45,707 nucleotides of DNA from an uncultured Planctomycetaceae bacterium (GTDB taxonomy: Bacteria; Planctomycetota; Planctomycetia; Pirellulales; Thermoguttaceae). The stretch lies in NCBI GenBank assembly GCA_947307005.1, contig CAMZHY010000001.1:1-45707 (forward strand), given 5' to 3'. Shown piece after piece: positions 11,124 through 44,147 of the stretch. Under the pieces are notes generated by a model. The model was not told the DNA's origin and did no database searches. It saw only the letters and a program-made list of their open reading frames with translations. Positions within the stretch are counted from its first letter, which is position 1. Every line of letters starts with the position of its first letter. The position numbers and the translations under genes were made by a program.

Positions 11124-11155
11124 AATAAAAAACGCGAATGAGCCGACCCGCTCAT
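11124..11155 (-). terminator. Putative terminator downstream of the GY-rich protein gene
   Basis: On the minus strand, stem atgagc/gctcat with a 6-nt loop is followed by tcgcgttttttatt. Confidence 0.4.
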
Positions 11156-11269
11156 ACAAAAGGAAAGAACGAAGAGAGGAACATCGCTTGCGAATATTCC
11201 TCTCAACGTCCATTTTCCTGTTGGCTCGAGTCTGAGCTCAGTCCCGTTCGGCTGAGGAGCGAAGGAGAC

Positions 11270-11881: not shown

Positions 11882-12275
11882 GGTTTCACCAATCCTTCAA
11901 AATTCCTATGCGTTATACGCTATTTAGCCGAACAAGTACGCAGGAAAGTACTCCCACCCACTTTTCGACCTATTTTAACTAGGGACTAATAAAAATCAAC
12001 ACGGTAAACGACTTTTTTTCTTAATTTCTCTAAAAAATCGGTATGTTTGGTTTTACTAATCAATAAACGCTATATATTGTGTAAATTAACAAAATAAATT
12101 AACTCAAAAGTCAAAACAACCTTTCGAATTCTAGCCGAGTAGTTAAATCATACCGTAACGATCTTTGATTCACCTCCCCCTTAAAGGATCAAGATCACTA
12201 TGTAAGAATTTATTTTCCATAAACTTATAAAACAAAACAATCGATAGCCTTCAAATTGACAAAATAAAGCCGCCG

Positions 12276-19952: not shown

Positions 19953-21083
19953 CTAAAACTGGAGTTGCATCACGACGTAACGATATCCGTCGTTCGTCTC
20001 AAAAAGCGAACGGTAATCCTGATTTTGCGAAATGTAAAACTGAACAGTCTCTTCCGGCGGAACTTCGCGGAAAAACTCATTAAGGAATTTTGAATCAAAT
20101 CGCAACATTTTCGGTTCGTCGTCATAGGAAATCGGCAGCTCGACGCTCGATTCGCCGGTCTCTTCGCCAGCCGCCGTTACGCTAACCTTGCCAGACTCAA
20201 AACTGAGCGACACTCCAGGTTTATTCTCAGTCGCGACAATATCGGCCTGACGAACTGCGCGCGCAAGTTCATCTGCGATAAAACTAACGTTCTTACTCTT
20301 GGATTTATCAAGAAGAATCATATTCCAATCAGGAAAACGCCCCGTCATTAAATTGGTTGCGACAACGACGTTTCCAAGTTGAATCATCGCGCGATCGCCC
20401 TTCACGGAAATATTGGCGTCCGACGCGAAAGAAGCGGAACGTTTGAGAAGAGTGAGCGTTCTAAGCGGGAACATCGCTCTTTTCTCCTCAAACTCGCCTT
20501 CCTGATCGCCGGATATATATTCGGACGCGTACTGCTGACACGCAAGTCTTTTTCCATCCGTCGCAATCGCGGTCGCGCGTTCCCGTTCAAACAAAAACAT
20601 AACGCAGCTGAGCTCATAATGAGCGTTGTTCGTCTCCGTCGCAAACTGAGTTCGGCTAATCATCCGGTTCAGCGACTCGACAGGAAGCTTGAAGTAATCC
20701 GTTTCTTGGAATGGATTGACGGTTGGGAAACTGTCGACGTCGTCAATCGTGTCGAGTTGGTATCGGAAACGCGCCCCTTTAACGGTCAAACGTCTTCCTT
20801 CGAGTTCCAAAAGAATATCGGAATCAGTCGTTTCTGAAAAGATTCGTCCTAAAAGTTTTGCAGGGAGAATCGCTTCGCCCGCACGATCAATAACAAAAGA
20901 TTCGTCGACGACAATTTCTCCACGCGCGCCGACGGAACCGTCCGTCGCCATAAGAATCACGCTCGACTCGTTCGCGATAATTTTCACGTTTTGCAGAGCT
21001 GGACGTAAGTCTCTTGTAGAAGCAAAGTTTGATATTAGCGAAAAAAGCGGCACGAACTTGTCGCGTTGAATGTGGATTTTCAT
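19953..21083 (-). CDS. dnaN: DNA polymerase III beta sliding clamp
   Basis: 376 aa with the typical N-terminus (MKIHIQRDKF..LQNVKIIANESSVILMATDG) and three-domain length. Confidence 0.95.
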   Translation of the reverse strand: MKIHIQRDKFVPLFSLISNFASTRDLRPALQNVKIIANESSVILMATDGSVGARGEIVVDESFVIDRAGEAILPAKLLGRIFSETTDSDILLELEGRRLTVKGARFRYQLDTIDDVDSFPTVNPFQETDYFKLPVESLNRMISRTQFATETNNAHYELSCVMFLFERERATAIATDGKRLACQQYASEYISGDQEGEFEEKRAMFPLRTLTLLKRSASFASDANISVKGDRAMIQLGNVVVATNLMTGRFPDWNMILLDKSKSKNVSFIADELARAVRQADIVATENKPGVSLSFESGKVSVTAAGEETGESSVELPISYDDEPKMLRFDSKFLNEFFREVPPEETVQFYISQNQDYRSLFETNDGYRYVVMQLQF

Positions 21084-22021
21084 AACGTTGCTCTGCTATG
21101 TTCAAATATTTCTAGACTTGCCAAAGATTCTACGCATACCCGCGTCGTTACAACGGGCCTTGCTATGATTATAGCCTGCAACCCCTATAAGTCTATATCC
21201 CTCGATGTAAACTACGAATATTATCTAAACTACCTATTCATATTCCTATTTACATTTTTCTTTTCGACTCCAAGAAAAGAATTTGATCTTTTCTCTTCTA
21301 CTCCTGCGCCTATGGCAATTAGCCAAGATAACAACGCCATTCCAAGAACCGTGTATATTTAACAGGATATATAATTCTCTTGATAATATATAAAAATCAA
21401 AAACCAAAATATCACTAATATTTTAAATATAAATATATTATTAATAATAGTGTCCCGAATCATTTTGTAAATAAATCCTCCTTCATTATCCGCAATAGCA
21501 AAAACCGAAATGGTTTAAAATATTCTAAAGAGATATTAAAAACCTGTATTTTTTATATCGTTTATATGTATTTTATTGTAATTAAAATGTTTTAAAATAA
21601 ATATTAAAATAAAATATAATTTCTATTTTTATTTTATAAACATTTTAGAAACACAAATAATACATCTTTTAAATATCCTCTTGAAAGATTCGGCGACTTT
21701 GTTCAGAAGAAGAGTCGAGAGATAAGAGAATTGGAGATTGCCGTATAGGCTTGGATTCATGGCGGATAGCGGAAATTGAGACGACCTCTTTTCATAAATG
21801 AAACAATATCGCGCTTTAGTATTTCGATTCGAGCGCGCGTTAAGGCTTCGACGCTGTGAAATTGATTTAGGTTCAGGACTTTAGAGACGTGGATAACAAT
21901 TCAAGCGCCGCTCTTTTTTAAAGACATATCAGCAGGAATAGGTTAGATAATATCCCCCTCCCTAGGATAAAACAGCGACTTTTGCGGCGCTTGTTTGTGT
22001 GATACTTTGAGAATTTTGATT

Positions 22022-23240: not shown

Positions 23241-23338
23241 TTCAATATGGGAGAAACGAGGGTATAATTGCGAATCGGTGAAGAATACGCGGTTTCGATA
23301 AAACGCGGACCTAACGTAAAGTCGGTTTTGCGAATCGG
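23241..23338 (+). promoter_or_regulatory. Candidate BMC-operon promoter (-35 TTCAAT, 16 nt, -10 TATAAT 23263-23268) with two 11-bp direct repeats TTGCGAATCGG
   Basis: Perfect -10 hexamer. Identical 11-mers sit at 23268-23278 and 23328-23338, exactly 60 bp apart, between the -10 and the pduL start. Confidence 0.4.
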
Positions 23339-23398: not shown

Positions 23399-24139
23399 AT
23401 GACCTCTCGGAATATCAGTCGGAATACGGTTGAAGCAATAGTTCGCCAGCTTCTGCGAGAAACGAACGGTTCTAAAGAAGGAGTCGTCGACGCGATTGTC
23501 GCCGCTTTTTCAGAGGGGGGCGCGGTTTCCGCTCCTAAGCCTGTCGAGGCGGTTAAGCCTCGCAAATCTGAGCTTGTCGTCAGTATCTCCGCGCGACATA
23601 TCCATTTAACCGACGCCGACGTTGAAACGCTTTTTGGAAAAGGCGCGAAACTCACCAAAATGAAGGATCTGTATCAAGACGGTTTCTTTGCGGCGAACGA
23701 GACGGTTATGTTAATTGGACCGCGTCGCAGAATGCTTCCTTCCGTTCGTATTCTTGGACCGACGCGTAAGGAGTCGCAGGTCGAGCTTTCTTTTACCGAC
23801 GCGATTTCTCTAGGGTTGGATCCTCCCGTTCGCGAGAGCGGCAAACTTGAAGACACCCCTGGGTGCGTTCTTGTCGGACCCGCCGGCGTCGTCGAGTTGA
23901 AGCGCGGCGTCATTCGCGCGGCGCGACACGTTCATATGGGGCCGGAAGACGCCGCTTATTACGGCGTTAAAGACAAGGAAATGATGAAGTTGCGCGTCGA
24001 GTCGGGCGTTTGCAGCGTAGTTCTTGAAGACGTCCTTGTTCGGATCGGCAAGAATATTAAGCTTGAAGTTCATCTTGACACAGACGAGGGAAACGCTGTT
24101 GACCTTGAACACGCGACGAAGATTGAACTGATTAAATAA
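23399..24139 (+). CDS. pduL: PduL-type phosphotransacylase with N-terminal encapsulation-peptide-like helices
   Basis: Two PduL repeats (SARHIHL.., AARHVHM..). The ~55-aa N-terminal extension holds amphipathic segments [11 protein letters not shown] and VVDAIVAAF. Confidence 0.92.
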
Positions 24140-24290
24140 AGACGCAATGGATTGCGCGCGTGAGTTTCACGGACGTAATCAATCGATATAAAACTAACCA
24201 AAAACAAAGGAAGAGTCGCGCGCGACGCGTTAAACGCTAGAGTTTTCCACGTTGCCGCGACGTAGCCCGCCAGTATTGGGAGATTTGATA

Positions 24291-24584
24291 ATGCAAGCGC
24301 TGGGTATTCTGGAAGGAAAAGGGTTCGTTACCCTGTTCGAAGCTGTCGACGCTATGATGAAGGCGGCGAACGTTCAGTTCCTCGGCTGGGACAAGCCGGG
24401 TAGCGGAATCGTGACCGTTTACGTTACGGGCGACGTCGCGGCTGTTAAGGCCGCCACCGACGCCGGGGTTGCGGCGGCTTCTCGTATTGGCGAAATCAGC
24501 GGCGTTCAGGTTATTCCGCGTCCGAATAACGACGTTGAGAAGGTTCTGCCGCAGATCAAGAAAGCGGCGGCTGCGAGCAAGTGA
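24291..24584 (+). CDS. BMC-H shell protein (Pfam00936 single domain)
   Basis: [28 protein letters not shown]...[20 protein letters not shown] lies 8 nt before ATG 24291; the track ORF begins at an upstream TTG. Confidence 0.93.
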
Positions 24585-24687
24585 GATTCTGAAAACGAAT
24601 CTCGATGTTCGTTAAGGAACGGCGACGCGTTGGTCGACCGTTGAGCGAATAAAGAAATAACGAAAGCGCTATATTGAGGATATAAAG

Positions 24688-24957
24688 ATGAACGACGCTA
24701 TTGGATTGATTGAAACGAAAGGCGTTCTTGCTCTGGTTAGCGCGTCCGACGCAATGGCTAAGGCTGCGGACGTGGAGATTGTTAAACGTATTCAGATCGG
24801 CGGCGGTTTTATGACGACGATCGTTCGCGGCGACGTTGGCAGCGTTCGCGCTGCGGTCGACGCTGGCGCCGCAGCCGCCGAGGCGTGCGGCGAGCTCAAA
24901 GCGGCGCACGTGATTCCTCGTCCGTCCGCCGGTTTGATCGAAGCGTTTACCGCTTGA
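24688..24957 (+). CDS. BMC-H shell protein (PduA/EutM-like)
   Basis: IGLIETKGVLALVSASDAMAKAADVEIV...VRGDVGSVRAAVDAG. Confidence 0.95.
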   Translation: MNDAIGLIETKGVLALVSASDAMAKAADVEIVKRIQIGGGFMTTIVRGDVGSVRAAVDAGAAAAEACGELKAAHVIPRPSAGLIEAFTA

Positions 24958-25066
24958 AATTCCGACAGAAGGTTCGCTTAAGAGCGTTTTTTCTTCGATA
25001 TTTCAAACACGCGTTGACGTCGTCGACAGCGACGGCGTCGGCGCTGTTGGCGGAGCGCCGAGTAAA

Positions 25067-26254
25067 ATGAAAATTCTGGTTGCAAATTTAGGTTCGACGA
25101 GCTTTAAGTATAGTCTTTACGACATGGACGACGAACGTCTCATGGCGAAAGGACGAGTCGAACGTATTGGCGAAGAGTCGAGTCCGTGTCAAATCGTTAT
25201 CGGCGATTATAAGAAGGAAGAGAACGTTTCCGCGCCCGATCATGGCGTCGCCGTGCGAGAATGTCTCCGTCAGTTGACCGACTCGGAGAACGGCTGTCTC
25301 AAGGACGCCTCCGAAATTGCCGGCATTGGCTTTAAAGCCGTGTTCGCAAACGGATATTCGGGGGTTCAACCTGTAACGGACGAGCTTCTCGCGGCGATGG
25401 AAGAATTTAACGCCGTTTTGCCGGCGCATAATCCTCCCTATGTTCGCGCGATGCGAATGCTTCGCAAGGCTCTCCCTGAGATTCCGCTTGTCGCCGCCTT
25501 TGAGACGGGATTTCACGAAAACATTCCCAATCGCAACCGTTACTACGGCGTTCCCTTCGAATGGGCGGAAAAGTACGGCGTTCGACGGTACGGGTTTCAC
25601 GGAGCGAGCCATCGCTATATTGCGACGCGTTGTCGTGAACTTTTCGGCGTCGATCGACGTATTGTGAGCTGTCACCTCGGCGGTTCGAGTTCCGTTTGCG
25701 CGATCGCCGACGGCATGAGCCGCGCGTCGAGCATGGGCGGCAGTCCTCAGACGGGCCTAATGAACAACAATCGTTGCGGCGATTTTGACCCGTTCTGGTG
25801 CAACTATCTTATCAAGAAGCTCAATATTTCGTTTGACGAGCTTCTCTCGATTCTTGCGACCAAGAGCGGTTTGCTCGGCGTTAGCGGCGTCAGCGGCGAC
25901 GTTCGAGATATTGCCGAGGCGCGCGACGCGGGTAATGAACGCGCTAAACTAGCGCTTGAGGTTCTTGTCGGCGACGTTCGACGCTATATCGGCGCGTCGC
26001 TTATGGAACTTGGCGGCGCGGATATGATTTCCTTCACCGGCGGAATCGGCGAATTTCGCGACGACGTTCGAGAGAAGGTTCTCGAAGGACTCGACGAACT
26101 CGGGATTACGTTGGATAAGGAAGCAAACTCAAAAACGTTTGGCGTGGAAGCGAAAATTAGCGCTCCCAGCAGTCGCATAGAAGTTTGGGTCGTGCCAACG
26201 AACGAGGAAATCATCGTCGGTCGTCAGACGAAAGCGTTGCTGGAAAAACGTTAA
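25067..26254 (+). CDS. ackA: Acetate/propionate-family kinase
   Basis: MKILVANLGSTSFKY, GFHGASH and the TNEE motif; 395 aa. Confidence 0.95.
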   Translation: MKILVANLGSTSFKYSLYDMDDERLMAKGRVERIGEESSPCQIVIGDYKKEENVSAPDHGVAVRECLRQLTDSENGCLKDASEIAGIGFKAVFANGYSGVQPVTDELLAAMEEFNAVLPAHNPPYVRAMRMLRKALPEIPLVAAFETGFHENIPNRNRYYGVPFEWAEKYGVRRYGFHGASHRYIATRCRELFGVDRRIVSCHLGGSSSVCAIADGMSRASSMGGSPQTGLMNNNRCGDFDPFWCNYLIKKLNISFDELLSILATKSGLLGVSGVSGDVRDIAEARDAGNERAKLALEVLVGDVRRYIGASLMELGGADMISFTGGIGEFRDDVREKVLEGLDELGITLDKEANSKTFGVEAKISAPSSRIEVWVVPTNEEIIVGRQTKALLEKR

Positions 26255-26302
26255 AGCACGTTCTTCTTCGCGCGGCGTCAGACTCTTCTAGAAGGCTAAA
26301 GA

Positions 26303-26608
26303 ATGTTTATCGCGAAAATCGTCGGGTCGTTGGTTTCGACGCAGAAGACGGGTTCGATGGTTGGATCGAAGCTCATGATGATCGAGCCTTACGTCGTCGA
26401 TCCTCAAACGCGCGATCGTTTTAAGACGACGAGCCGTTCCTTAGTCGCGGTCGATATAGTCGGCGCCGGCGAGGGCGATTTTGTGCTCGTTGTTCAGGGT
26501 TCTAGCGCGCGTATGACGCCGGAAACAAAGTCTCTTCCAGTGGACTGCACGATTATTGGCGTCATCGACACGGTGACGCTTGATCGGCGGAACGTTCCTC
26601 TTGAATAG
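26303..26608 (+). CDS. BMC-P pentameric vertex protein (EutN/CcmL family), copy 1
   Basis: MFIAKIVGSLVSTQK...VDIVGAGEGDFVLVVQGSSAR; 101 aa. Confidence 0.9.
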   Translation: MFIAKIVGSLVSTQKTGSMVGSKLMMIEPYVVDPQTRDRFKTTSRSLVAVDIVGAGEGDFVLVVQGSSARMTPETKSLPVDCTIIGVIDTVTLDRRNVPLE

Positions 26609-26760
26609 ACGAGCGGTTTGCGTCTGGCGGACGATCTTTATAAAGAATACTAGCGGAAGAAATGGCGTCTCGGCGTTCAAATAGGTTGCGACGGCGGTTG
26701 GTCGTTGACAAAGACGAGCTTCGAGGATCGCGTTCCTTCTTTCACAGGAGTGAGAATAAA

Positions 26761-28218
26761 ATGGCGGAAGTTAGCGAAGCGCTAGTACGAAGCGTGCTTC
26801 AGGAAGTTATGTCTCGACTTGGCGGATCCGCGTCTGCGACAAGCGCGCTTGGCGGCGGGGTCGCGCCCAAGAGCTATGCCGGTCGATATGGGGTTTTTGA
26901 CGATCCGAACGAAGCAATCGAGGCCGCGAACGAGGCGTACGATCAACTTTCTCGCTGCAAAATCGCCGACCGAAAGAAGATGATCGACGTCATCCGACGC
27001 ATTTGTATTGAACAGAGCGTCGAGCTTGGAACGAAAGAACTGGAAGAAACGAAGATCGGTCGTCTTGAGCATAAGATCGACAAGCTTTTAAACGTCGGTT
27101 ACAACGCGCAAGGCGTCGAGGCGTTGAGTTCGGAAGTTTTTAGCGGCGACTATGGACTGACGGTTATCGAGCACGCGCCCTTTGGCGTGATTGGCGCGAT
27201 TACGCCGAGCACCCACTCTCTTCCGACGATCGCAAACAACTCGATCAACATGATCGCGGCCGGCAACACGGTTGTTTTCAATCCTCACCCGCACGCCTGT
27301 AAAATCGCCGCCGAGGGCGTCAAGCGTTTTAACCAAGCGATTTACGCGGAGTTTGGAATTGACAACTTGATGTGCGTCATTCCTCAGCCGACTCTCGAAA
27401 GCGCGGACGTTATCTTTAAGCATCCCAAGATCAATCTCTTGGTGGTGACCGGCGGCGAAGGCGTCGTTAAAGCCGCGATGGCGCAGTCGAAACGCGCGAT
27501 CGTCGCGGGACCGGGCAACCCGCCGGTCGTCGTCGACGAGTCCGCCGATTTGGACCGCGCGGCGAAGTCGATTATTCTCGGCGGCGCGTATGACAACAAC
27601 CTGCTCTGCCTTGCCGAAAAAGAAGTGTTTGTCGTCGAATCCGTCTTTGACAAGATGATGGACGCGATGGAACGCGCGGGCGCGATTCGTTTGAACGCCG
27701 CGGAGACCGCCGCGATGACTCAGCGCGGGATCGTTCAGGTGGGCGAAGGCGACAAACGCCATGCGGCGCCGAGTCGCGAATTCCTCGGAAAAGACGCCGC
27801 CGTCCTCGCGGCGGGAATTGGCAAGAGCGTTCCGAAAGACGTCGAGATGCTTTACGGCGAGACGGACTACGAAAACCCGTTCGTGCCCGTCGAGCAGATG
27901 ATGCCGTTCCTTCCGTTTGTTCGTTGCCGCAACGTCGACGAAGCGATTCAACGCGCTTACGAGATGGAACACGGCTTCCATCATACGGCGATTATTCACT
28001 CAAATAACGTCGTTAATATGACCAAGATGGGCAAGTTGCTCAATACGACGATATTTGTGAAGAACGGTCCGAGCACGGCTGGAAACGGCGGCGGCGGTGA
28101 AGGGTACGGATCTTATTCGATTGCGGGTCCGACTGGAGAAGGCATAACGCGCCCGTTGACCTTTACGCGCAGTCGTCGTTGCGCGATGGTCGACAGTCTC
28201 CATATTCTTGGTCGATAA
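26761..28218 (+). CDS. CoA-acylating aldehyde dehydrogenase (PduP/EutE-like) with N-terminal encapsulation peptide
   Basis: Catalytic-Cys context NNLLCLAEKE and N-terminal amphipathic EALVRSVLQEVMSRL. AGGAG precedes ATG 26761. The upstream extension in the track ORF is R-rich. Confidence 0.93.
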   Translation: MAEVSEALVRSVLQEVMSRLGGSASATSALGGGVAPKSYAGRYGVFDDPNEAIEAANEAYDQLSRCKIADRKKMIDVIRRICIEQSVELGTKELEETKIGRLEHKIDKLLNVGYNAQGVEALSSEVFSGDYGLTVIEHAPFGVIGAITPSTHSLPTIANNSINMIAAGNTVVFNPHPHACKIAAEGVKRFNQAIYAEFGIDNLMCVIPQPTLESADVIFKHPKINLLVVTGGEGVVKAAMAQSKRAIVAGPGNPPVVVDESADLDRAAKSIILGGAYDNNLLCLAEKEVFVVESVFDKMMDAMERAGAIRLNAAETAAMTQRGIVQVGEGDKRHAAPSREFLGKDAAVLAAGIGKSVPKDVEMLYGETDYENPFVPVEQMMPFLPFVRCRNVDEAIQRAYEMEHGFHHTAIIHSNNVVNMTKMGKLLNTTIFVKNGPSTAGNGGGGEGYGSYSIAGPTGEGITRPLTFTRSRRCAMVDSLHILGR

Positions 28219-28256
28219 AACTGTTGAAATTGCGTTTGTAGCGACGCGATGAAATA

Positions 28257-28293
28257 TCCGGCGCGCGATTTTGCGTCTCGCGCCGGACGTTTT
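28257..28293 (+). terminator. GC-rich hairpin plus short T-run after the aldehyde dehydrogenase gene (internal attenuator/terminator candidate)
   Basis: ccggcgcg (28258-28265) pairs with cgcgccgg (28279-28286). The stem extends to ~12 bp with one mismatch and is followed by acgtttt. Confidence 0.5.
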
Positions 28294-28343
28294 GAAGTTG
28301 GGAACAGTTTCTTTGTGGTTTTGACAACAACACAATCAAGACG

Positions 28344-28883
28344 ATGAACATCGGCAATTTTGAATGGGAAGTGTTCCGCCACTCGATTCACACCTTTAAC
28401 TGGTGGGAAGCGGGGATGGCGAGCTTCTTTATCATTGCCGGACTTGTTTCCATTAAATGGACGAAAAAGACGGGGTCGGTTGACGGGAAGAGCGTTAACG
28501 CTCTTTTTTGCCTTCTTCTTGGCTCGATAATGGGGTTGGCGTTTAAGCTTTTCGCGTACCTCGACGTGACGGTTCTTTTGCACGCGGCCCTTGTCGTCGT
28601 CTTTTTCCTCGATTTTAAGAAAACTAGAGATATTCGAAATCGACTCCTTAAAGCGGAAGACGCGCTCAACATAAAAAAGCGGCGCGATTCTCTTATAGGA
28701 GGCGTTAAGTCGACCGGTCGCGCTGACGCTTCAAGAGAGCATAGAGAGCATTCTCATTCGCATTCTCATCATTCGCATCATCATCATGAACGCGGACGCT
28801 CTCATTCGTCCGATCATGATTCGGACGCGTCGGCGAAGGAGCCAAAGAATCCTATCCACGACGATCCTTTGACGGACGAATAA
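28344..28883 (+). CDS. Small 3-TM membrane protein with His-rich C-terminal tail, function unknown
   Basis: Hydrophobic segments ASFFIIAGLVSI, ALFCLLLGSIMGLAFKLFAYL and VLLHAALVVVFFL. The tail reads HREHSHSHSHHSHHHHERGRSHSSDHD. Codon usage resembles neighbouring genes. Confidence 0.65.
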   Translation: MNIGNFEWEVFRHSIHTFNWWEAGMASFFIIAGLVSIKWTKKTGSVDGKSVNALFCLLLGSIMGLAFKLFAYLDVTVLLHAALVVVFFLDFKKTRDIRNRLLKAEDALNIKKRRDSLIGGVKSTGRADASREHREHSHSHSHHSHHHHERGRSHSSDHDSDASAKEPKNPIHDDPLTDE

Positions 28884-28900
28884 AAGACGAAAAGACGGCG

Positions 28901-29185
28901 ATGAATCGCGCCCGTATTATTGGTTACGCGACCTCCGTGGTTAAACACGAGTCGCTTGTTGGACAGAAGATGTTAATCGCTCAGCCCGTAACGACCGACG
29001 GCAAGCCTGAAGGCGATCCTTCGATCGTTTACGATAAACTTGGCGCGGGCGTCGGCGATCTCGTCCTGATAACGAGCGACGGTTCCTTTACGCGAACTGA
29101 GATTATTGGGACGAAACTAACGCCCGCGCGTTGGGCGATTGTGGGAATTATCGATTCGGTTAAGAAATCGGACGCGGAAGAATGA
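28901..29185 (+). CDS. BMC-P vertex protein (EutN/CcmL family), copy 2
   Basis: MNRARIIGYATSVVKHESLVGQKMLIAQP...GAGVGDLVLITSDGS; 94 aa. Its stop overlaps the next start (ATGA). Confidence 0.9.
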   Translation: MNRARIIGYATSVVKHESLVGQKMLIAQPVTTDGKPEGDPSIVYDKLGAGVGDLVLITSDGSFTRTEIIGTKLTPARWAIVGIIDSVKKSDAEE

Positions 29186-30009
29186 ACGGATTGGATTGGG
29201 ACCTGGACGCTTTGGTCGGCGCGATCATGTCCGATCTCCGGGGACGTTCTCCCGTCGCGTCCGCCGAAAACGTTAGCGAGACGCTGTCTCGCGATTTTGC
29301 GGACGCTCGACGGTCGTTGAGCCAGCCGACGAAAGAACCGACCGTTTTTGACGTCGACGAGCGCGTCGTTGTTCGTGAGACCGTCGTCAAACTCGCGTCG
29401 ACGACTAAGTTGAAGGTTTGGCGTCTTCGCGGCGACGTTGTGGCGACCCCCGCCGCTTACGACGAGCTCGCCAGTCGAGGAATCAGCGTTATTCGCGCAG
29501 GTCGCAGCGACGTGAAATCGCCGACGCCCTCCCCTTCCCCGGCGCGCGCGACCCTTTCCGCGTCAAACGCCGCGGATCGGGAATCCGCGAAAGCGTTTAA
29601 GACGGACCAAGAGACTTCGAAATCCGCCTCGCGAGCGCAGGTCCTTTTGGCGACTTGTTTGCCGGAAAATGAACGCGCCCCTCAGGGAATTGTCGAATAC
29701 TTAAAACGCAACGCGGAATTCGTCGAAGAGCGCCTTGACTGCATGAAGAAGACGACGGAATTGGTCGCCGACTCTCTTGCGGCGAACGACGCGCTGAAAG
29801 TCGTTATTGCGACGCGCGACGGAGCGGTCGGGTGCGTTTGGGCAAATCGCAAAAAAGGCGTTCGCGCCGTCGTCGCCGTGACGGTCGAACAGGCGAAGCG
29901 CGACCTTGCGGCGACGAACGCCAATACGCTGATTTTGGATCCTCGCGACGTTGGACCTTATCAGGCGCGTCAGATTGTCGACTTCTTCACGCGAATGGGA
30001 CGAAGGTGA
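29182..30009 (+). CDS. BMC-associated protein: N-terminal amphipathic helix, S/P-rich linker, C-terminal degenerate RpiB/LacAB-like domain
   Basis: The C-terminus KVVIATRDGAVGCVWANRKKGVRAVVAVTVEQAKRDLAATNANTLILDPRDVGPYQARQIVDFF is colinear with the RpiB segment ILICGTGVGISIAANK..GIRA..HND.NVL..G.RV.G...A..IV. The alignment is from memory. Confidence 0.75.
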   Translation: MNGLDWDLDALVGAIMSDLRGRSPVASAENVSETLSRDFADARRSLSQPTKEPTVFDVDERVVVRETVVKLASTTKLKVWRLRGDVVATPAAYDELASRGISVIRAGRSDVKSPTPSPSPARATLSASNAADRESAKAFKTDQETSKSASRAQVLLATCLPENERAPQGIVEYLKRNAEFVEERLDCMKKTTELVADSLAANDALKVVIATRDGAVGCVWANRKKGVRAVVAVTVEQAKRDLAATNANTLILDPRDVGPYQARQIVDFFTRMGRR

Positions 30010-30013
30010 GACA

Positions 30014-30445
30014 ATGCGCATAGGTCAAGTCATCGGCAAGGTTGTGCTTAACCGCGTTCATCCGTCCATGATTGGAGCGCAGTTTAAGATAGTCGCACCG
30101 CTGACGTTTAACGATCTGGCGGAGCCCGATCCGCTTGAGTCCGCCCGGAGCGTCGGCGACGACGAGAACGAGCGCGGACTTGATCACGCCGCGCAGGTGG
30201 CGGCGGCGACGAATCGTCTCGCGAATCAGACGATTCCTCGACAGCGTGGAAACGAAATCGTCGTTTACGACGATTGTTCGGCCGCGATTGGAGAATGGCT
30301 CGCGTTTAGCGAAGGCGCCGAGGCGGCCGCCGCGTTTGGCGTGGAAAATCCTCATCCGGTCGACGCGTTTGGCGGCGCGATCATCGACAACGTCGAGATT
30401 GACGCCCAAGTCGTCGCGGAACTTGCGGCGATGAAGAATAAGTAA
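30014..30445 (+). CDS. BMC-P vertex protein (EutN/CcmL family), copy 3, with ~50-aa internal insertion
   Basis: MRIGQVIGKVVLNRVHPSMIGAQFKIVAPL then an insert, then EIVVYDDCSAAIGEWLAFSEG. GAAGGTGAG lies upstream of ATG 30014. Confidence 0.8.
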   Translation: MRIGQVIGKVVLNRVHPSMIGAQFKIVAPLTFNDLAEPDPLESARSVGDDENERGLDHAAQVAAATNRLANQTIPRQRGNEIVVYDDCSAAIGEWLAFSEGAEAAAAFGVENPHPVDAFGGAIIDNVEIDAQVVAELAAMKNK

Positions 30446-30455
30446 GATAGCGCCG

Positions 30456-30483
30456 TCTTTTTCGTTCCTGAGAACGAAAAAGA
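30456..30483 (+). other. Perfect 12-bp stem / 4-nt loop hairpin in the BMV3-aldolase spacer
   Basis: tctttttcgttc ctga gaacgaaaaaga. No downstream U-tract on either strand. Confidence 0.7.
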
Positions 30484-30627
30484 AAAGACTATAGAAAACG
30501 GACGTTTTGGACGTGTTCATAGTAGAGCGGCGTTTCCAAGATAAATAGAGCGTTTTGATAATCAACGAGACGCGGCTGCGGCGACGCGGCGAACGTCGTG
30601 AAGTTATAAAAGCAAAAGGAACGGCAT

Positions 30628-31515
30628 ATGCTCAATTTGCACCAAGTTAAGGACGAAATCTGCGACATTGGTCGTAGATTGTACAATCGGGGGTTTGCGG
30701 CGGCGAACGACGGCAATATCAGCTATCGTATCGACGAAAATCGCGTCGTCTGCACCCCGACGCAAATCTGCAAGGGATTTATGAAGCCCGAGGATCTTTG
30801 CATCGTCGACATGGAGGGAAATCAGATCGCCGGCACGCGTAAGCGCACGAGCGAAATCTTCCTCCACCTGACGATCATGAAGGAACGCCCCGAAGTTCGT
30901 TCCGTCCTCCATTGCCATCCGCCTTATCCTACCGCCTTCGGGATTGCGAAGGAAGCGATTCCTCAGTGCGTCCTTCCCGAAGTCGATATCTATATGGGCG
31001 ACGTTCCGATTGCGAAGTACGCGATTCCGGGCGGTCAGGAGTTTGCCGACACCGTTTTGCCGTATATTCATAAGTCCGACATCATCGTCCTTGCCAATCA
31101 CGGCACCGTCAGCTTGGGTCCGACCGTCGAAAAAGCGTACTGGCTGACCGAAATTCTCGACGCGTATTGCCGTATCCTTATGATCTCTCACGATCTTGGC
31201 AAAACAAGCTACTTCACGAAAGACGAAGCGGAAGCGCTCCTTCAGCTCAAGACGAAGTGGGGTATCAAGGATCCGCGCCTTCAGGCGGAAAATTGCGAGC
31301 TTTGCGCGAACGATATGTTCCGCGACAGCTGGAAGGAAACGGGCGTCGGTCACCGCGCGTTCAATCCCCCGACGTTCCGTCGCGGCGACGAGCCTTGCGG
31401 TTGCGCCTCTAATCCGATCCTGAACAACAACGTCGAAGTCGGCAAGGACCCCGAAACGGAAGCGCTTGTCAAAGCGATCGCCGATCGCGTTATTGAGATG
31501 ATCAATAAGAAGTGA
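30628..31515 (+). CDS. Class II (Zn-dependent) aldolase, fuculose/rhamnulose-1-phosphate aldolase-like, with ~80-aa C-terminal extension ending in an encapsulation peptide
   Basis: NDGNISYR, HLTIM, LHCHPP and ANHG motifs. The extension has CELC and CGC pairs and a terminal ETEALVKAIADRVIEMINKK. Confidence 0.93.
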   Translation: MLNLHQVKDEICDIGRRLYNRGFAAANDGNISYRIDENRVVCTPTQICKGFMKPEDLCIVDMEGNQIAGTRKRTSEIFLHLTIMKERPEVRSVLHCHPPYPTAFGIAKEAIPQCVLPEVDIYMGDVPIAKYAIPGGQEFADTVLPYIHKSDIIVLANHGTVSLGPTVEKAYWLTEILDAYCRILMISHDLGKTSYFTKDEAEALLQLKTKWGIKDPRLQAENCELCANDMFRDSWKETGVGHRAFNPPTFRRGDEPCGCASNPILNNNVEVGKDPETEALVKAIADRVIEMINKK

Positions 31516-31565
31516 GGCGCTTTCCTCGCGGTTTTTGCCGCATAAGGTAAGAATTTAGTCGTATG

Positions 31566-31608
31566 CGGAAGACGCGAGACAACTTCGCGTCTTCCGTTTT
31601 TCTTTTTT
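31566..31608 (+). terminator. Rho-independent terminator ending the BMC operon
   Basis: 12-bp perfect stem cggaagacgcga/tcgcgtcttccg with a 7-nt loop, followed by tttttctttttt. Confidence 0.88.
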
Positions 31609-32791: not shown

Positions 32792-33060
32792 ATATGTCGC
32801 GGACAAAGTTGAAGGTGTGATTTTGAGGATTGTACCTTCTAGATAAGGAGTCTTAGGAAGAGCGCGCGTTTTTGGACTTGATTTATAGAAGTCTTAGGGA
32901 TTTTTGGGACGATATATAAACTGTTCAGAAAGACGTTGTTTATCTGAATTACCTATTTTAGTTAAATTAACGTCTTATTGTTCTCCCCTCCCCTGCCTAG
33001 CGGGTTTTTAGGAGACCGCGTCGCCGGTCTTCCAAAAGCGCGCCTTTGACGAGCGTTCCC

Positions 33061-33342
33061 ATGAATTCAAGTTCCAACGCGCGTACAATGGACGAACTCA
33101 AAGAGTATGTTTACGCGGCTCTTTGTAAAGACAACGATCTTCTCGCCGGCGCTTTCCCATCGACGACGACTCCCGTTCGCAGAAACGGCGAGCTTTGCGG
33201 GGTGATCTTCTGCGTTCATGGTCCGCGCCGAGTAGATTTTAGCGCAATTTGGGAAAAGAAAACGAACCGCGTGCTTTTTTATCGACCGACCGGCGAGCGA
33301 TATCGTTTGGCGACGCTCGACGGTTCTTTGCAAATCGAGTAA
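33061..33342 (+). CDS. Small hypothetical protein upstream of csrA
   Basis: 93-aa ORF from ATG 33061 (the track starts at TTG 33046). No recognisable domain. Coding status rests only on ORF length and codon look. Confidence 0.45.
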   Translation: MNSSSNARTMDELKEYVYAALCKDNDLLAGAFPSTTTPVRRNGELCGVIFCVHGPRRVDFSAIWEKKTNRVLFYRPTGERYRLATLDGSLQIE

Positions 33343-33412: not shown

Positions 33413-33601
33413 ATGCTTGTAGTGTCCCGAAAACCCGGCGAAAGCGTTTGGGTCGGAGACGGTATTAATATCACCGTCGTTGAGATTAAAGGCTCAAAAA
33501 TCCGACTTGGCGTGACTGCCGACAAGGAAACGACGATTCTTCGCGGCGAGATTTGCCCGGTTAAGGATTCTGAAAAAGGATCTGTGAAGAAAGTCGCCTG
33601 A
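33413..33601 (+). CDS. csrA: Carbon storage regulator CsrA
   Basis: MLVVSRKPGESVWVGDGINITVVEIKGSKIRLGVTADKETTILRGEI. Confidence 0.93.
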   Translation: MLVVSRKPGESVWVGDGINITVVEIKGSKIRLGVTADKETTILRGEICPVKDSEKGSVKKVA

Positions 33602-33699: not shown

Positions 33700-35463
33700 T
33701 TATTCGGCGTCGTTTTTTGGGGCTTCGCTTGGAACGTCTTCTGCGGCGGCGTCAGCCCTTTCTTGCAGTTGTTTCTGCATCGTCTGCATTTGCGCTTGGT
33801 AAGATTCAAGCTGCTGAGCGTAGGCGTTGACCTCTTCGTTGTCGGCGACTTTACAGAAGTTGAGCACGTCTTCAAACGTCGTGTCGAAAAGATCCTCTTT
33901 GTGGTTCTTCTGACCAATCTCGACGATGCTGGAACGCGCGAAGAGGAGACCTCCGACGCAACTTGGGCATGTGAGAATATCCTGCTTGAACTGTTTTAGC
34001 GCGGCGTTGAAATCGTCGAGACTGCCGTTGTTGTCAAGACTCTTTTTTAACAAACCGACAAAACGCGCGACGTAAATTGTAGAGACGGCTTCTTCGTTCG
34101 CCTTGTCTTTGCTAAGTTCGGCGACGTAATCGGCGTGCTTGCTGAAACTTGCCGGCTCTTTTGTGATTAGGTCGGTGACGACGGAAAGCTTCACTTGGTC
34201 GAGCTTAGGCTTGAGGTCTTCGTCGGGATTCTTCGCAAGTTCGCCTTCGATGAACGCCAAGAGACCGTCGCGATCTTCCTGTAAATTGAAAGACTGAATT
34301 TTCAGACCAATCGCCTGCCCCAACAGCTCTTCTTTTTCTTTTGACTCTTTGTAAACTTTTTCAGCGTATTCAGTTAACGCTGCGACGGCGTTTTTGTCTG
34401 TTCGCGCGGCTTTGAGAAGAAGCTCGCCTTTAACGGCGACGCCGAGCGCGTAGAGTTCCTTGTCTTCCTCCTTTTCGAGCTGCGCGATAAGCGTCTCGAG
34501 CTTTTCGGTAGCTTTTTCGTCGGTCGTATTAGGATCGAGGAGGGTTTGAACGCGGAGCTGACAGACCATTTTTCGAAGATCGAGCGAATATTTTCCGGGC
34601 GTCAACAGATCTTGGAAGAGTTTTTCCGCTTCTTCGCCGTACGATTTATCCTGCTCGGCGTCTTCCTTTTCTTTTTCGAGTTCGCTGGCGATAACATAGG
34701 CGACCAATTTAAGTTCAAGCGCTTTTTCTCTGACGGCCTGATCGCGTTTTTCATCGTTGATAACGGTCTCGAGGAACGACAAAAGTTCTTTGTCGACTTC
34801 ACCGGTTTTTTGGACCTTCATAAGAAAATTCTGAGCCTTGACTTCGAGCGCGAAGACTTGGAGCTCGCTTTTGTCGAGCGCAAACATTTCGTCGGCGAGC
34901 TTTGCGATTTCGACGCTAGGATCTTCGATAGAAGACGTAAGGACTTGAAGTTTCAACTGATACGCTTTGACGAGCGCCTCGTCGGATTTTGCGTTCTTAA
35001 TGTTTTCGTCAACGAACGCGTTAAGCTGATCGGCGGCCTCTTCGTCGATATTGGCGCGCGTTGTGAGCGCGACGACCTTAAGTTGAACGGCGCGTTCACG
35101 CTGTTCTTCTGTAAGATCCATCGCTAGCATTTTGTCGGCGGCGGTTAAGCATGTTTTGGAGAATGCGTCGATAACGGTAAAGCGTTCCTGTTGATTCTTC
35201 GGAACTGGCAGTTTGGTTTGAAGACCGTTAATGAACTCGAATAGTTCGTCAAACGTTGCGTTTTCCGGGAGCGCGAGGATGGACTCGTCGATCTTAAGCG
35301 GTTCCGGAGCCTTGGGGGGATCGACCATTAGCGAATCAAGCGAGAGAGACGCGGGGACGTCCGTTTTCGGCGTAGTCGGCTTATCCTGAGCTAGCGCAAC
35401 GGAGGAACTAAGCGCGCAGGAAAGAACGAGAGCCAACGAACATAGGGAAGAGCGTTTAAACAT
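33700..35463 (-). CDS. Secreted all-helical repeat protein, function unknown
   Basis: Signal peptide ending VALAQD. The 587-aa sequence is rich in E/K/L/A with helical repeats. Confidence 0.8.
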   Translation of the reverse strand: MFKRSSLCSLALVLSCALSSSVALAQDKPTTPKTDVPASLSLDSLMVDPPKAPEPLKIDESILALPENATFDELFEFINGLQTKLPVPKNQQERFTVIDAFSKTCLTAADKMLAMDLTEEQRERAVQLKVVALTTRANIDEEAADQLNAFVDENIKNAKSDEALVKAYQLKLQVLTSSIEDPSVEIAKLADEMFALDKSELQVFALEVKAQNFLMKVQKTGEVDKELLSFLETVINDEKRDQAVREKALELKLVAYVIASELEKEKEDAEQDKSYGEEAEKLFQDLLTPGKYSLDLRKMVCQLRVQTLLDPNTTDEKATEKLETLIAQLEKEEDKELYALGVAVKGELLLKAARTDKNAVAALTEYAEKVYKESKEKEELLGQAIGLKIQSFNLQEDRDGLLAFIEGELAKNPDEDLKPKLDQVKLSVVTDLITKEPASFSKHADYVAELSKDKANEEAVSTIYVARFVGLLKKSLDNNGSLDDFNAALKQFKQDILTCPSCVGGLLFARSSIVEIGQKNHKEDLFDTTFEDVLNFCKVADNEEVNAYAQQLESYQAQMQTMQKQLQERADAAAEDVPSEAPKNDAE

Positions 35464-42956: not shown

Positions 42957-43856
42957 CTAATCGTGAAACGTGTCGAGATCGGAAAGACGAGCGAGCGCTT
43001 GAACGAGCGCCTGAACGCCTTTTCGACTTCCGCCTTGCGCTACAAGCGCGACGTAGAGCTGACGAACGAGCGCAAGGCCGGGAAGGGCGATCTGGAGTTT
43101 TTCCGCATCTTCGAGCGCGAGCCCCATGTCTTTAACAAAATGTTCGACGTAGAAGCCGGGCTGGTAATCTCCTTTGATAATTCGCGGTCCGTAATTGGAA
43201 AGCGACCAACTTCCCGCCGCGCCCGTCGCGACGGACGCGATTGTTTTCTCAAGATCGAGTCCCGCTCTATAAGCGTAAAGAAGCGCTTCGCACACCCCGA
43301 TCATCGTTCCTGCGATGAGAATCTGGTTGGCGAGTTTGGTTCGTTGTCCGGCGCCCGGTTCGCCAACGCGGCGGATATTGGTTCCCAACCGCTCAAACAG
43401 CGGCGTTAGACGCTTCGCCGCTTCTTCGGAGCCGCCAATCATAATGGAAAGCGTTCCATTCCTTGCGCCGACGTCGCCGCCGGAAACGGGCGCGTCGAGC
43501 GCTTCGAAACCGCTGGTCTTCGCGGCGTCGGCAATCTCGACGGCGAGCTCGGGAGAGCTGGTGGACATATCGACGTAAACTTTGCCGTCGGCGTTTCCCT
43601 CCTTCCAAGCGGCGAGGACTCCGCGCGCGCCAAAGAAAACGTCGCGAACGTCTCGAGGGTATCCGACGCACGAAAAGACGACGTCAGTTTGCGCGGCGAC
43701 GTCGGCGGCGGAGTCGCCCCATTTGGCGCCGGCGTCGAGCAACGGTTTTGCCTTTTGAGGCGAACGCGTCGTGACGACGAGGGGATATCCGGCTTCTAAT
43801 AGACGTTTGGCGCATGATCCGCCGATCACGCCCGTTCCAATCCAACCGATGCGCAT
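42957..43856 (-). CDS. NAD(P)-dependent beta-hydroxyacid dehydrogenase (3-hydroxyisobutyrate / tartronate semialdehyde reductase family)
   Basis: N-terminal GWIGTGVIGG Rossmann motif, DAPVSGG and a conserved C-terminal helical domain. Confidence 0.9.
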   Translation of the reverse strand: MRIGWIGTGVIGGSCAKRLLEAGYPLVVTTRSPQKAKPLLDAGAKWGDSAADVAAQTDVVFSCVGYPRDVRDVFFGARGVLAAWKEGNADGKVYVDMSTSSPELAVEIADAAKTSGFEALDAPVSGGDVGARNGTLSIMIGGSEEAAKRLTPLFERLGTNIRRVGEPGAGQRTKLANQILIAGTMIGVCEALLYAYRAGLDLEKTIASVATGAAGSWSLSNYGPRIIKGDYQPGFYVEHFVKDMGLALEDAEKLQIALPGLALVRQLYVALVAQGGSRKGVQALVQALARLSDLDTFHD

Positions 43857-44062: not shown

Positions 44063-44147
44063 GCGGGCGTGGCGGAATTGGCAGACGCGTCAGGTTGAGG
44101 GCCTGATGGGAGTTAATCCCGTGGAGGTTCGAGTCCTCTCGCCCGCA
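44063..44147 (+). tRNA. tRNA-Leu (anticodon GAG), type II with long variable arm
   Basis: Acceptor stem GCGGGCG/CGCCCGC, anticodon stem TCAGG/CCTGA with loop TTGAGGG, variable-arm stem GGGA/TCCC and T-loop GGTTCGAGTCC. No CCA is encoded. Confidence 0.93.

Follow-up and report, generated by a model that had tools for sequence, protein, structure and literature searches.

The eleven co-oriented genes at positions 23399-31515 (+ strand) of the window, i.e. the whole 45.7 kb stretch of DNA analysed, very probably form the entire core operon for a metabolosome of PVM type (Planctomycetes/Verrucomicrobia), on the whole a known system with modest variation; its host is a Thermoguttaceae planctomycete from gut or rumen. 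The genes are ordered PduL, BMC-H, BMC-H, AckA, BMC-P, AldDH, ORF7, BMC-P, ORF9, BMC-P and class II aldolase, with a strong terminator at their end (Table 1); all were found in place on the + strand with family assignments passing curated cut-offs, as in a preliminary description of the region, which counted ten genes where its own list holds eleven. By analogy with the characterised system we would expect, with high confidence, a standard planctomycete PVM operon for fucose or rhamnose breakdown, in which one small lineage-specific membrane protein is unusual, as is the fact that the usual regulator and NAD-recycling genes do not adjoin. There are three real differences: ORF7, the lack of a DeoR- or LDH-like gene among the ORFs scanned across the 45.7 kb window with the operon lying beside dnaN and the likely oriC, and an insertion in the third pentamer.

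Table 1. Features of the PVM-type operon, with positions in the window
Feature	Product or description	Position	Strand	Basis
pvmB	PduL-type phosphotransacylase, predicted lactyl-CoA to lactyl-phosphate	23399..24139	+	PF06130, NF011652
pvmD	BMC-H hexamer shell protein	24252..24584, probable start ATG 24291	+	PF00936
pvmE	Second BMC-H hexamer shell protein	24688..24957	+	PF00936 E 1e-24
pvmG	Acetate/propionate-family kinase, predicted lactyl-phosphate + ADP to lactate + ATP	25067..26254	+	PF00871, TIGR00016
pvmH	BMC-P pentamer (vertex) protein, standard type	26303..26608	+	PF03319 E 3e-26; PvmH position in catalog naming
pvmJ	CoA-acylating aldehyde dehydrogenase	26761..28218	+	NF011927; relatives' start calls
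ORF7	Small membrane protein, lineage-specific	28344..28883	+	Predicted helices, orthologs, rarity, dN/dS
pvmK	Second BMC-P of triplet	28901..29185	+	PF03319 E 6e-23
pvmL ortholog	ORF9	29182..30009	+	PF02502, AF2 model, Foldseek, microsynteny
pvmM	Third BMC-P of triplet	30014..30445, ORF opens 29951	+	PF03319 E 3e-15
pvmN	Class II (metal-dependent) aldolase, signature enzyme	30628..31515	+	PF00596
Terminator	Intrinsic terminator closing the operon	31565..31607	+	14-bp stem with 8 GC pairs, 5-nt loop, T-rich tail

The PVM metabolosome of Planctopirus limnophila (pvmA-O) was reportedly described by Erbilgin et al. 2014, and Axen 2014 is said to treat PVM as a BMC locus type. The synteny comparison with P. 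limnophila pvm suggested earlier runs here through catalog tables and other PVM loci, and by that route the gene order agrees, matching the catalog's B-D-E-G-H-J-K-L-M-N. Both systems have the same enzymes (class II aldolase, CoA-acylating AldDH, PduL and AckA-family kinase), the same shell (2 BMC-H and a BMC-P triplet, no BMC-T), a PvmL-type gene between the second and third pentamer genes, an aromatic residue at PduL Gln77 and terminal encapsulation-type helices on PduL, AldDH, PvmL and aldolase, and both belong to the phylum Planctomycetota. The catalog, in which the PVM type comprises 285 loci (Sutter 2021 catalog, PMC8217296), names PvmB/D/E/G/H/J/K/L/M/N in an order matching the window, and the order PduL-H-H-AckA-P-AldDH-P-PvmL-P-aldolase is identical in four distant metagenomic loci (L037, L039, L040 and L041) whose products share 28-71% identity with the proteins encoded here; one of them, L041, has DeoR on its upstream side and LDH/MDH downstream, the flanks described for PVM. 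The earlier assignment to PVM is therefore upheld by enzyme set, shell set, gene order and the PduL aromatic residue alike. In contrast to P. limnophila, the ORFs scanned across the 45.7 kb window include no DeoR (pvmA) or LDH/MDH-type dehydrogenase (pvmO) gene, pvmJ and pvmK are separated by an additional membrane-protein gene (ORF7), PvmM has an insertion of ~37 residues, and the host belongs to an anaerobic animal gut lineage, whereas the P. limnophila system was described for aerobic degradation.

With regard to the enzymes, PduL matches PF06130 (E 1e-73) and NF011652 (250.8 bits, cut-off 209) and aligns to rPduL 5CUO (E 4.5e-45), and the motifs RHIH, QVELS, RHVHM and EVHLD keep the metal-ligand residues, as read from the 5CUO alignment and residue list. 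The position of rPduL Gln77 is occupied by Phe96, a PVM-specific aromatic residue (F in 24/26 related loci, Y in 2/26). AckA matches PF00871 over residues 2-384 of 395 (E 5e-100) and TIGR00016 (332.8 bits, cut-off 293.4), while AldDH scores 600 bits with NF011927 (EutE/PduP type, cut-off 403) and shares 61% identity with its counterpart in the DeoR/LDH-flanked L041. The AldDH ORF opens at 26662, with Met34 at 26761 the probable start of a 485 aa protein (relatives are called at 484-485 aa), and it is one of three ORFs with a probable start downstream of the longest-ORF start, together with the first BMC-H (24291) and the third BMC-P (30014). The aldolase matches PF00596 over residues 10-184 (E 8e-46) and is 59% identical to those of L041 and L037, and as it falls below every NCBIfam equivalog cut-off (FucA-type models score 70-119 bits), its substrate may be fuculose-1-P, rhamnulose-1-P or another ketose-1-P.

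Judging from their sequences, PduL, AldDH, PvmL and the aldolase are likely to be cargo, as each carries at one terminus an amphipathic helix like those of encapsulation peptides, while AckA has none. The N-terminal helix of PduL is typical of an encapsulation peptide, that of AldDH is of encapsulation type (EALVRSVLQEVMSRL), and the aldolase has a C-terminal extension of ~110 residues ending in an encapsulation-type helix (EALVKAIADRVIEMINKK), its C-terminal 14-mer having the highest hydrophobic moment in the protein; C-terminal EPs are documented on BMC aldolases (PMC4594438). The hydrophobic-moment scan gave no outstanding amphipathic terminus for AckA, which also has no terminal extension.

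The shell composition was correctly seen in the preliminary description, but what it took for a minimal variant shell without BMC-T is canonical, since by the catalog's definition the PVM shell has exactly two BMC-H plus three different BMC-P, with no BMC-T (PMC8217296, Supplementary Data 2). In the first BMC-H, the PF00936 domain (E 2.5e-25) begins at residue 16 of the long ORF, and relatives are called at 94-100 aa. PvmM has a single PF03319 match stretch in which 125 residues cover the 83-position profile, and alignment with the PvmM proteins of L041, L037 and L032 places the insertion of ~37 residues at residues ~44-81, in the Thermoguttaceae clade only.

From homology to the characterised P. 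limnophila system we infer the mechanism, with its substrate, packaging and assembly. L-fuculose-1-P or L-rhamnulose-1-P would be supplied through unlinked isomerase and kinase genes and cleaved by PvmN to DHAP and L-lactaldehyde, inside a shell for which the two BMC-H would provide the hexamers and the three BMC-P the pentamers. Lactaldehyde would be converted to lactyl-CoA by PvmJ with reduction of NAD+, PduL (PvmB) would then form lactyl-phosphate and recycle CoA, and PvmG, the AckA-family kinase, would yield lactate and ATP, with PvmL (ORF9) as a conserved lumen protein that has the RpiB fold but lacks the catalytic residues of RpiB.

ORF7 is a membrane accessory that is restricted to one clade and dispensable. 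Three hydrophobic helices are predicted in it, along with a basic helix and a disordered His/Ser/Arg tail, the motif KEPx[FY]xD[PD]L stands at the C-terminus, and its structure model (pLDDT 54) has helices at 20-43, 48-72 and 75-118. There was no Pfam or NCBIfam match and no likeness to known BMC components, and ORF7 is not a catalogued PVM component, in line with its earlier listing as an ORF without assigned role. Its description as His-rich fits the window's copy, which has 13 His among its last 59 residues, but not the family, where tails hold 1-13 His. The gene is confined to gut Thermoguttaceae, where orthologs lie between pvmJ and pvmK in most relatives, and it is considered dispensable because it is absent from the canonical PVM loci (L037, L039-L041, L032) and was lost twice within the gut Thermoguttaceae (L006, and the L007/L010/L022 branch).

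It is possible, although we would put it forward only tentatively, that ORF7 is an unrelated small membrane protein riding in the operon, a neutral insertion with no compartment role; this is consistent with the at least two losses in which the rest of the operon was kept, with the lack of similarity to BMC components and with its absence from the wider PVM type, but sits poorly with a position and purifying selection (dN/dS 0.14 in the membrane part, 0.17 in the tail) kept across a clade in which ORF9 identity drops to about 36%, and with ORF7 never having been seen outside its slot among the loci fetched. That same position in the operon and purifying selection, together with a family found essentially only in the PVM-operon context (27 clusters among 1.84 billion representatives) and a short linear motif conserved at the tail end, would suit a functional organelle part, which we regard as rather unlikely. 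ORF7 would then be a membrane anchor with the tail and KEPx[FY]xD[PD]L motif binding shell or cargo, so tethering or positioning the compartment, or Zn2+ would pass from its His-rich tail to the aldolase and to PduL, a di-zinc enzyme; the charge distribution, with +2 in the loop and +6 in the segment after TM3, puts both on the cytoplasmic side and predicts that the tail faces the compartment. The absences and losses, the variable His content of the tail and the low-confidence model all speak against such a part.

In contrast to ORF7, ORF9 is an already annotated component, so that the reading of the locus as a variant with two extra parts is mostly unsupported. By both position and sequence ORF9 is orthologous to PvmL, a protein of unknown function that is named in the catalog (BMC catalog, PMC8217296) and is present in every PVM locus fetched, always between the second and third BMC-P. 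The pvmK stop overlaps the ORF9 start by 4 nt, identical to the overlap with the PvmL gene in L032, and ORF9 resembles its PvmL homologs in position, in three-part architecture and in the RpiB-like C-domain, with ~28% identity to canonical PvmL. Its amphipathic helix at the N-terminus is followed by a small alpha/beta domain at 55-105, then by a disordered linker (108-148) and, at 150-275, by a domain of RpiB fold. The N-terminal helix has drifted from the very sharp core of the catalog's PvmL encapsulation-peptide HMM (-15 bits, against 24-38 bits for PvmL homologs outside the clade), although its hydrophobic spacing is kept.

The RpiB-like half of ORF9 could suggest an active RpiB/LacAB sugar-phosphate isomerase which supplies or converts the phosphosugar in the compartment, making the locus a PVM/SPU hybrid. 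ORF9 does have a weak PF02502 (RpiB) match (residues 191-270, E 4e-8, above the gathering score), the AF2 model is confident (pLDDT 77 overall, >90 in the RpiB domain), all of the top 45 Foldseek PDB matches are RpiB/LacAB-fold family entries (best E 3e-8), the NRxxG(V/I)RA and ANxL motifs are shared with the RpiB/LacAB isomerases, and the catalog has PF02502 as SPU signature enzyme (BMC catalog, PMC8217296). The match covers only the second half of the profile, however (positions 43-122 of 138), and the window's copy has no Asp-His motif after the first strand. All four catalytic positions checked are replaced: Cys66, Thr68, His99 and Asn100 of E. coli RpiB, whose sequence is consistent with the HMMER alignment to RpiB of T. 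maritima (1O1X), correspond to Thr211, Asp213, Ala244 and Thr245, and the replacements are kept in the PvmL family (Thr in 26/28 sequences, Ala in 23/28). ORF9 also differs from the isomerases in adding the N-terminal encapsulation helix and a small PduM/eut_hyp-like domain, there is no SPU partner enzyme (PF01791 DeoC), and a PvmL-type protein occurs in all PVM loci examined and hence is not a hybrid feature. We thus consider an isomerase improbable, and a structural, assembly or ligand-binding role for PvmL most likely. The middle domain of the PvmL homologs compares with PduM and TIGR02536 'eut_hyp' through the motif V-I-T-P-S-A-R-D-x-L-x-x-x-G-I, and gave weak, repeated matches to their C-terminal ~50 residues (E 3e-4 to 0.07, below all cut-offs); no such match was seen for the window's own ORF9 in the same search. 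Both PduM and eut_hyp are BMC-associated proteins with a structural or unknown role. The catalog puts PvmL in the same HMM group (PF02441-related) as eut_hyp (BMC catalog, PMC8217296), and flavoprotein (PF02441) similarity was not found by sequence or fold search.

That the locus belongs to another aldolase-containing type is scarcely credible: the enzyme set of MUF2 is the same and its AldDH is the closest to PVM, and the PF00596 aldolase also occurs in PVM-like and GRM5 loci (BMC catalog, PMC8217296), but MUF2 loci have BMC-T, fused BMC-H proteins and a cysteine-rich protein (BMC catalog, PMC8217296), whereas the window has 2 BMC-H and 3 BMC-P without BMC-T, is collinear with DeoR/LDH-flanked PVM loci, and has a planctomycete host and the aromatic PduL signature.

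Finally, the Pfam scan covered 30 non-nested ORFs of the 45.7 kb window, each 150 aa or longer (the longest ORFs outside the scan being 678-1133 and 1121-1729, of 151 and 202 aa, + strand), and brought up neither a regulator nor an LDH/MDH, an Fe-ADH, a sugar kinase or an isomerase, which extends to the ORFs scanned across the window the earlier remark that a regulator, lactaldehyde reductase, sugar kinase and isomerase are missing from the operon. With no DeoR or LDH/MDH beside the operon, other parts of the genome must provide for regulation and NAD+ regeneration. The operon adjoins dnaN and the likely oriC, and the whole neighbourhood is common to about 30 Thermoguttaceae loci. The strong terminator noted earlier was borne out as the top-scoring match of the terminator scan, its stem at 31565-31597 being followed by TTTTTCTTTTT.

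The + strand between 23399 and 31515 contains eleven consecutive ORFs, and both the gene set of the preliminary description and the strong terminator after the aldolase gene are confirmed; its count of ten genes is corrected to eleven, which is also the number in its own list. The locus is a bona fide operon of the PVM (Planctomycetes/Verrucomicrobia metabolosome) type, as had been proposed there, with aldolase, AldDH plus PduL and kinase, shell set and gene order all fitting. PF00596, the identifying Pfam of PVM (Axen 2014), is represented by an aldolase 59% identical to that of PVM loci flanked by DeoR and LDH genes, and the core enzymes AldDH, PduL and the acetate-kinase family member all score above curated cut-offs (NF011927, NF011652 and TIGR00016, respectively). 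The BMC catalog (Sutter 2021; PMC8217296) lists 285 PVM loci and names the components PvmB (PTAC), PvmD and PvmE (BMC-H), PvmG (kinase), PvmH, PvmK and PvmM (BMC-P), PvmJ (AldDH), PvmL (under a PF02441-type HMM), PvmN (aldolase) and PvmO (LDH/MDH), and the catalog order of the Pvm genes is the order found in this operon. Its shell genes encode two PF00936 single-domain and three PF03319 proteins, with no further BMC-domain ORF among the 30 non-nested ORFs of at least 150 aa scanned in the window. The suggestion that such a minimal shell without BMC-T is a variant does not hold, because two BMC-H and a BMC-P triplet without BMC-T are exactly the set which defines the PVM shell in Supplementary Data 2 of the catalog (PMC8217296), and hence this shell is not a departure from the type.

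Features of the operon and of the rest of the window, with best family matches and identity to distant PVM loci
Feature	Position (nt)	Strand	Match or remark	Identity (%)
PduL (pvmB)		+	PF06130, E 1e-73; NF011652, 250.8 bits (cut-off 209)	57
Two single-domain BMC-H (pvmD, pvmE)		+	PF00936, E 2.5e-25 and 1e-24	67-71
Acetate/propionate-family kinase, AckA (pvmG)		+	PF00871, E 5e-100; TIGR00016, 332.8 bits (above cut-off)	47-49
Three EutN/CcmL pentamers, BMC-P	third: 30014-30445	+	PF03319, E 3e-26, 6e-23 and 3e-15	first 58-60; second 50; third 28-33
CoA-acylating AldDH, EutE/PduP kind (pvmJ)		+	NF011927, 600 bits (cut-off 403)	61
ORF7	28344-28883	+	no family match	
ORF9 (pvmL slot)	29182-30009	+	PF02502, E 4e-8, last 80 residues only	28
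Class II aldolase (pvmN)		+	PF00596, E 8e-46	59
TATAAT	23263-23268		130 nt 5' of PduL start	
Terminator-like stem	31565-31597		14 bp, followed by T-run	
Antisense ORFs (examples)	27088-27999; 30604-31353		within operon	
dnaN	19953-21083	-		
AT-rich gap	21084-22021		GC 0.33	
98-aa ORF	33046-33342		no Pfam or NCBIfam match	
CsrA	33413-33601			
587-aa ORF	33700-35463		no Pfam match	
Wzz/tyrosine-kinase-like gene	6831-9638			
Second low-GC stretch	10001-11000		GC 0.37	
ORF	11138-11989		no family match	
834-aa ORF	15715-18219	-	no Pfam match	
881-aa ORF	38268-40913	+	no Pfam or NCBIfam match	
Beta-hydroxyacid dehydrogenase	42957-43856	-	below every equivalog cut-off	
tRNA-Leu(GAG)	44063-44148			
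BNR_2 (sialidase-like) protein	44360-45460			

For the PVM comparison, four distant canonical loci (L037 and L039-L041) were retrieved by a metagenome scan, and these share the identical order PduL-H-H-AckA-P-AldDH-P-PvmL-P-aldolase. A profile scan of genome contigs with the alignment of ORF9 returned only Thermoguttaceae-type MAGs, the patterns being clade-specific, and a second profile search with the ORF9 family gave matches almost confined to the same clade. Of the 27 syntenic genome loci, nearly all bear the title of a Thermoguttaceae, Planctomycetaceae, Planctomycetales or planctomycete MAG, with rumen or gut as the usual source (one, L010, is deposited as Paratractidigestivibacter sp.), which fits the Planctomycetota or Verrucomicrobiota hosts of the PVM type, and most of the ORF9 homologs and their loci are from samples of rumen, colon, rectum and human gut. 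The gut is anoxic and rich in fucose from mucin and plant glycans. We found no literature on microcompartments in gut Thermoguttaceae, and it is of modest importance that the PVM organelle for fucose and rhamnose is extended here to uncultured Thermoguttaceae from the guts of animals and humans.

By homology with the characterised PVM system, fuculose-1-phosphate or rhamnulose-1-phosphate would be cleaved inside the shell to DHAP and lactaldehyde, and the latter would be oxidised to lactyl-CoA and passed on as lactyl-phosphate, with production of ATP. The PduLs of pvm loci have Tyr or Phe instead of Gln77 of rPduL, a proposed signature of lactyl-CoA preference (Erbilgin 2016), and in the alignment to 5CUO, the numbering of which was checked via the zinc ligands His48, His50 and Glu109, this position corresponds to Phe96 (Phe in 24 and Tyr in 2 of 26 related loci). 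The sequence does not fix which sugar is used, since the aldolase reaches no equivalog cut-off. PduL, AldDH, PvmL and the aldolase are predicted cargo, marked by terminal amphipathic helices, which in the aldolase is located at the C-terminus, as documented for BMC aldolases (PMC4594438), while the kinase has no terminal amphipathic helix.

The shell and one of the two ORFs previously described as extra are thus already standard for PVM, and the true variations are a dispensable, clade-specific membrane protein (ORF7), the lack of a regulator and a dehydrogenase next to the operon, and an insertion within one of the pentamers. In L041 a DeoR gene lies directly upstream and an LDH/MDH gene directly downstream, the flanking arrangement given for PVM by Axen et al. 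(Axen 2014), whereas the window operon has neither. The absence of a local regulator, sugar kinase and isomerase, as first described, holds for the 30 ORFs scanned, where no DeoR, LDH/MDH, Fe-ADH or fucose/rhamnose isomerase or kinase was detected in the 45.7 kb, and in none of the Thermoguttaceae relatives does such a gene adjoin the operon. Functions for regulation, substrate supply and regeneration of NAD+ are not encoded locally. As DeoR and LDH/MDH are ancillary in the catalog, and some PVM organisations have satellite loci (PMC8217296), their absence represents variation rather than exclusion from the PVM type. Without an LDH-type enzyme next to the operon, the lineage lends itself naturally to the study of NAD+ recycling in a PVM compartment. 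A beta-hydroxyacid dehydrogenase resembling tartronate-semialdehyde, 3-hydroxyisobutyrate and sulfolactaldehyde reductases is encoded elsewhere in the window; it could conceivably act as an unlinked aldehyde reductase for NAD+ recycling, with nothing tying this gene to the operon. With regard to the shell, the third pentamer contains an insertion of approximately 37 residues (residues ~44-81) with a conserved NRLxN motif, which is found throughout the gut Thermoguttaceae clade and is absent in the alignment from PvmM of L032 (a locus outside this clade), L037 and L041.

Judged by the gene calls in relatives, the probable starts of AldDH (26761), the first BMC-H (24291) and the third pentamer (30014) lie further inward than the openings of these ORFs. 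No terminator-like site of the region is stronger than the one 50 nt past the aldolase stop. The perfect TATAAT upstream of PduL is within a 330-nt divergent intergenic region; it is not preceded by a good -35 sequence and was not listed by the promoter-site scan. The Rfam scan of the window gave one tRNA only, and no riboswitch or leader 5' of the operon. The long antisense ORFs in the operon were taken as by-products of the coding strand.

Of the two ORFs first described as extra and unassigned, ORF7 is the only one truly without assignment, and ORF9, as judged by slot and homology, is a diverged ortholog of the catalogued component PvmL. ORF9 is located between the second and third pentamer genes, with a 4-nt overlap with the second, and the same arrangement holds for P0087 in L032 (flanked by two EutN genes) and for the PvmL genes of L037-L041. 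The ORF9-family profile matches P0086-P0088, which are PvmL homologs from outside the gut clade, at E 1e-8 to 2e-5, and the L037-L041 PvmL proteins, which also have PF02502, match ORF9 at E 1e-12. All have in common an N-terminal amphipathic helix, a low-complexity linker, a small domain with the motif V-I-T-P-S-A-x-D-x-L, and a C-terminal domain with the motifs NRxxGVRA and ANxLxxDP. The catalog contains an HMM for the PvmL encapsulation peptide, named HMM02441_01.PVM (PMC8217296). Scored over HMM core positions 8-24, with the HMM stretch taken as HMM02441_01.PVM from its place in the file, the N-termini form a declining series: P0087 (38 bits, shuffles at most 15), L041 PvmL (36 bits), L037 PvmL (34 bits), P0088 (27 bits), P0086 (24 bits), P0051 from within the gut clade (13.7 bits, in the same register) and ORF9 itself, which fails on this core (-15 bits). 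What the ORF9 N-terminus retains is the same i, i+3, i+4, i+7, i+8, i+11 hydrophobic spacing (L8, L11, V12, I15, M16, L19).

In its AlphaFold model (mean pLDDT 77, and above 90 for residues 150-275), ORF9 has the RpiB alpha/beta fold: the top 45 PDB matches in Foldseek all belong to the RpiB/LacAB-fold family (best E 3e-8), with 41 RpiB/LacAB chains at E 3e-8 to 1e-3 and TM-scores of 0.6-0.8 normalised to the target. Catalysis in RpiB/LacAB enzymes depends on the base Cys66, or Glu75 in the M. tuberculosis type, together with Thr68, His99 and Asn100. Cys66, Thr68, His99 and Asn100 of E. coli RpiB correspond to Thr211, Asp213, Ala244 and Thr245 of ORF9, and the Glu75 equivalent is, by reading of the alignment, a Gly; the E. 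coli sequence used agrees with the HMMER alignment to 1O1X. These replacements are conserved across 28 ORF9-family members, and ORF9 is unlikely to be a working RpiB/LacAB isomerase. The reading as a PF02441 flavoprotein, to which the HMM name in the catalog points, was rejected in favour of the RpiB fold, as PvmL/ORF9 gave no PF02441 match at E up to 10, and no flavoprotein was present among the significant fold matches of ORF9 (E <= 0.01). PvmL is filed under a flavoprotein-type HMM in the catalog, yet is modelled as an RpiB domain without the RpiB catalytic residues. Weakly but repeatedly, the middle domain of other PvmL proteins matches PduM and TIGR02536 eut_hyp at their C-terminal ends (E 3e-4 to 0.07), which probably explains the catalog grouping. 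For a component conserved across the PVM loci examined, an RpiB fold without catalytic residues suggests a non-catalytic role, and we infer that PvmL is an encapsulated RpiB-fold protein which is no longer an isomerase and has a part in assembly or in the binding of a ligand. A literature search gave nothing on PvmL function.

Small membrane proteins encoded within a shell and cargo operon, as ORF7 is, are rare. Orthologs are located between the AldDH and second pentamer genes in most Thermoguttaceae loci, with a diverged copy in L028, while there is no room for the gene in L006, L007, L010 and L022, and it is absent from L032 and L037-L041. In a neighbour-joining tree of AldDH the loci without ORF7 form two branches nested in the ORF7-bearing clade, and therefore a single gain was followed by at least two losses. 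Only 27 clusters were obtained when 1.84 billion representative proteins were searched exhaustively with HMMER; nearly all have 150-220 residues (three are shorter), and most match over nearly the whole length. The dN/dS values relative to the L005 copy (0.14 for the membrane part, 0.17 for the tail) indicate a real gene under constraint. Common to the family are an N-terminal segment MTIxxFxWxxFW...SWxE and three hydrophobic helices (20-43, 48-72 and 75-~93), the turn being marked by a KLFxxLDV motif. Further shared features are a strongly basic helix of net charge +6 and a disordered tail rich in His, Ser and Arg, in which the number of His varies from 1 to 13, and most members also have the motif KEPx[FY]xD[PD]L at the C-terminus. 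The structure model (pLDDT 54) is too uncertain for a fold search. Judging from its charge distribution, the protein would have its N-terminus outside and its tail in the cytoplasm. ORF7 is a possible membrane tether or metal-handling accessory, or it may be a neutral passenger. The more specific joint reading, in which ORF7 is a new accessory, a membrane tether or metal-delivery factor that docks the PVM organelle or its cargo at the cytoplasmic membrane via the tail and KEPx[FY]xD[PD]L motif, and PvmL is a PduM-like RpiB-fold pseudoenzyme assembly factor, is in our opinion unlikely.

The operon is common to about thirty loci, and its neighbourhood to every locus long enough to show the flanks: upstream ApbE, dnaN, an AT-rich gap and an LPG-synthase-TM-like gene, and downstream an M24 peptidase, a 98-aa ORF and CsrA. 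The cumulative GC skew minimum falls exactly in the AT-rich gap between dnaN and the LPG_synthase_TM-like gene, and this coincidence indicates a likely replication origin directly upstream of the operon. DnaA boxes with one mismatch number six in the window versus 3.7 expected, which is not significant window-wide; three of these are at 21486, 21888 and 23035. A second low-GC stretch lies between the Wzz/tyrosine-kinase-like gene and an ORF without family match. Downstream of the operon, the 98-aa ORF and CsrA are found again in almost every relative with a contig reaching that far, and the 587-aa ORF that follows is matched by a counterpart of 582 aa in the four loci where genes are called in this part. 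Finally, the tRNA-Leu(GAG) gene lies just upstream of the BNR_2 gene, the product of which is consistent with glycan foraging.
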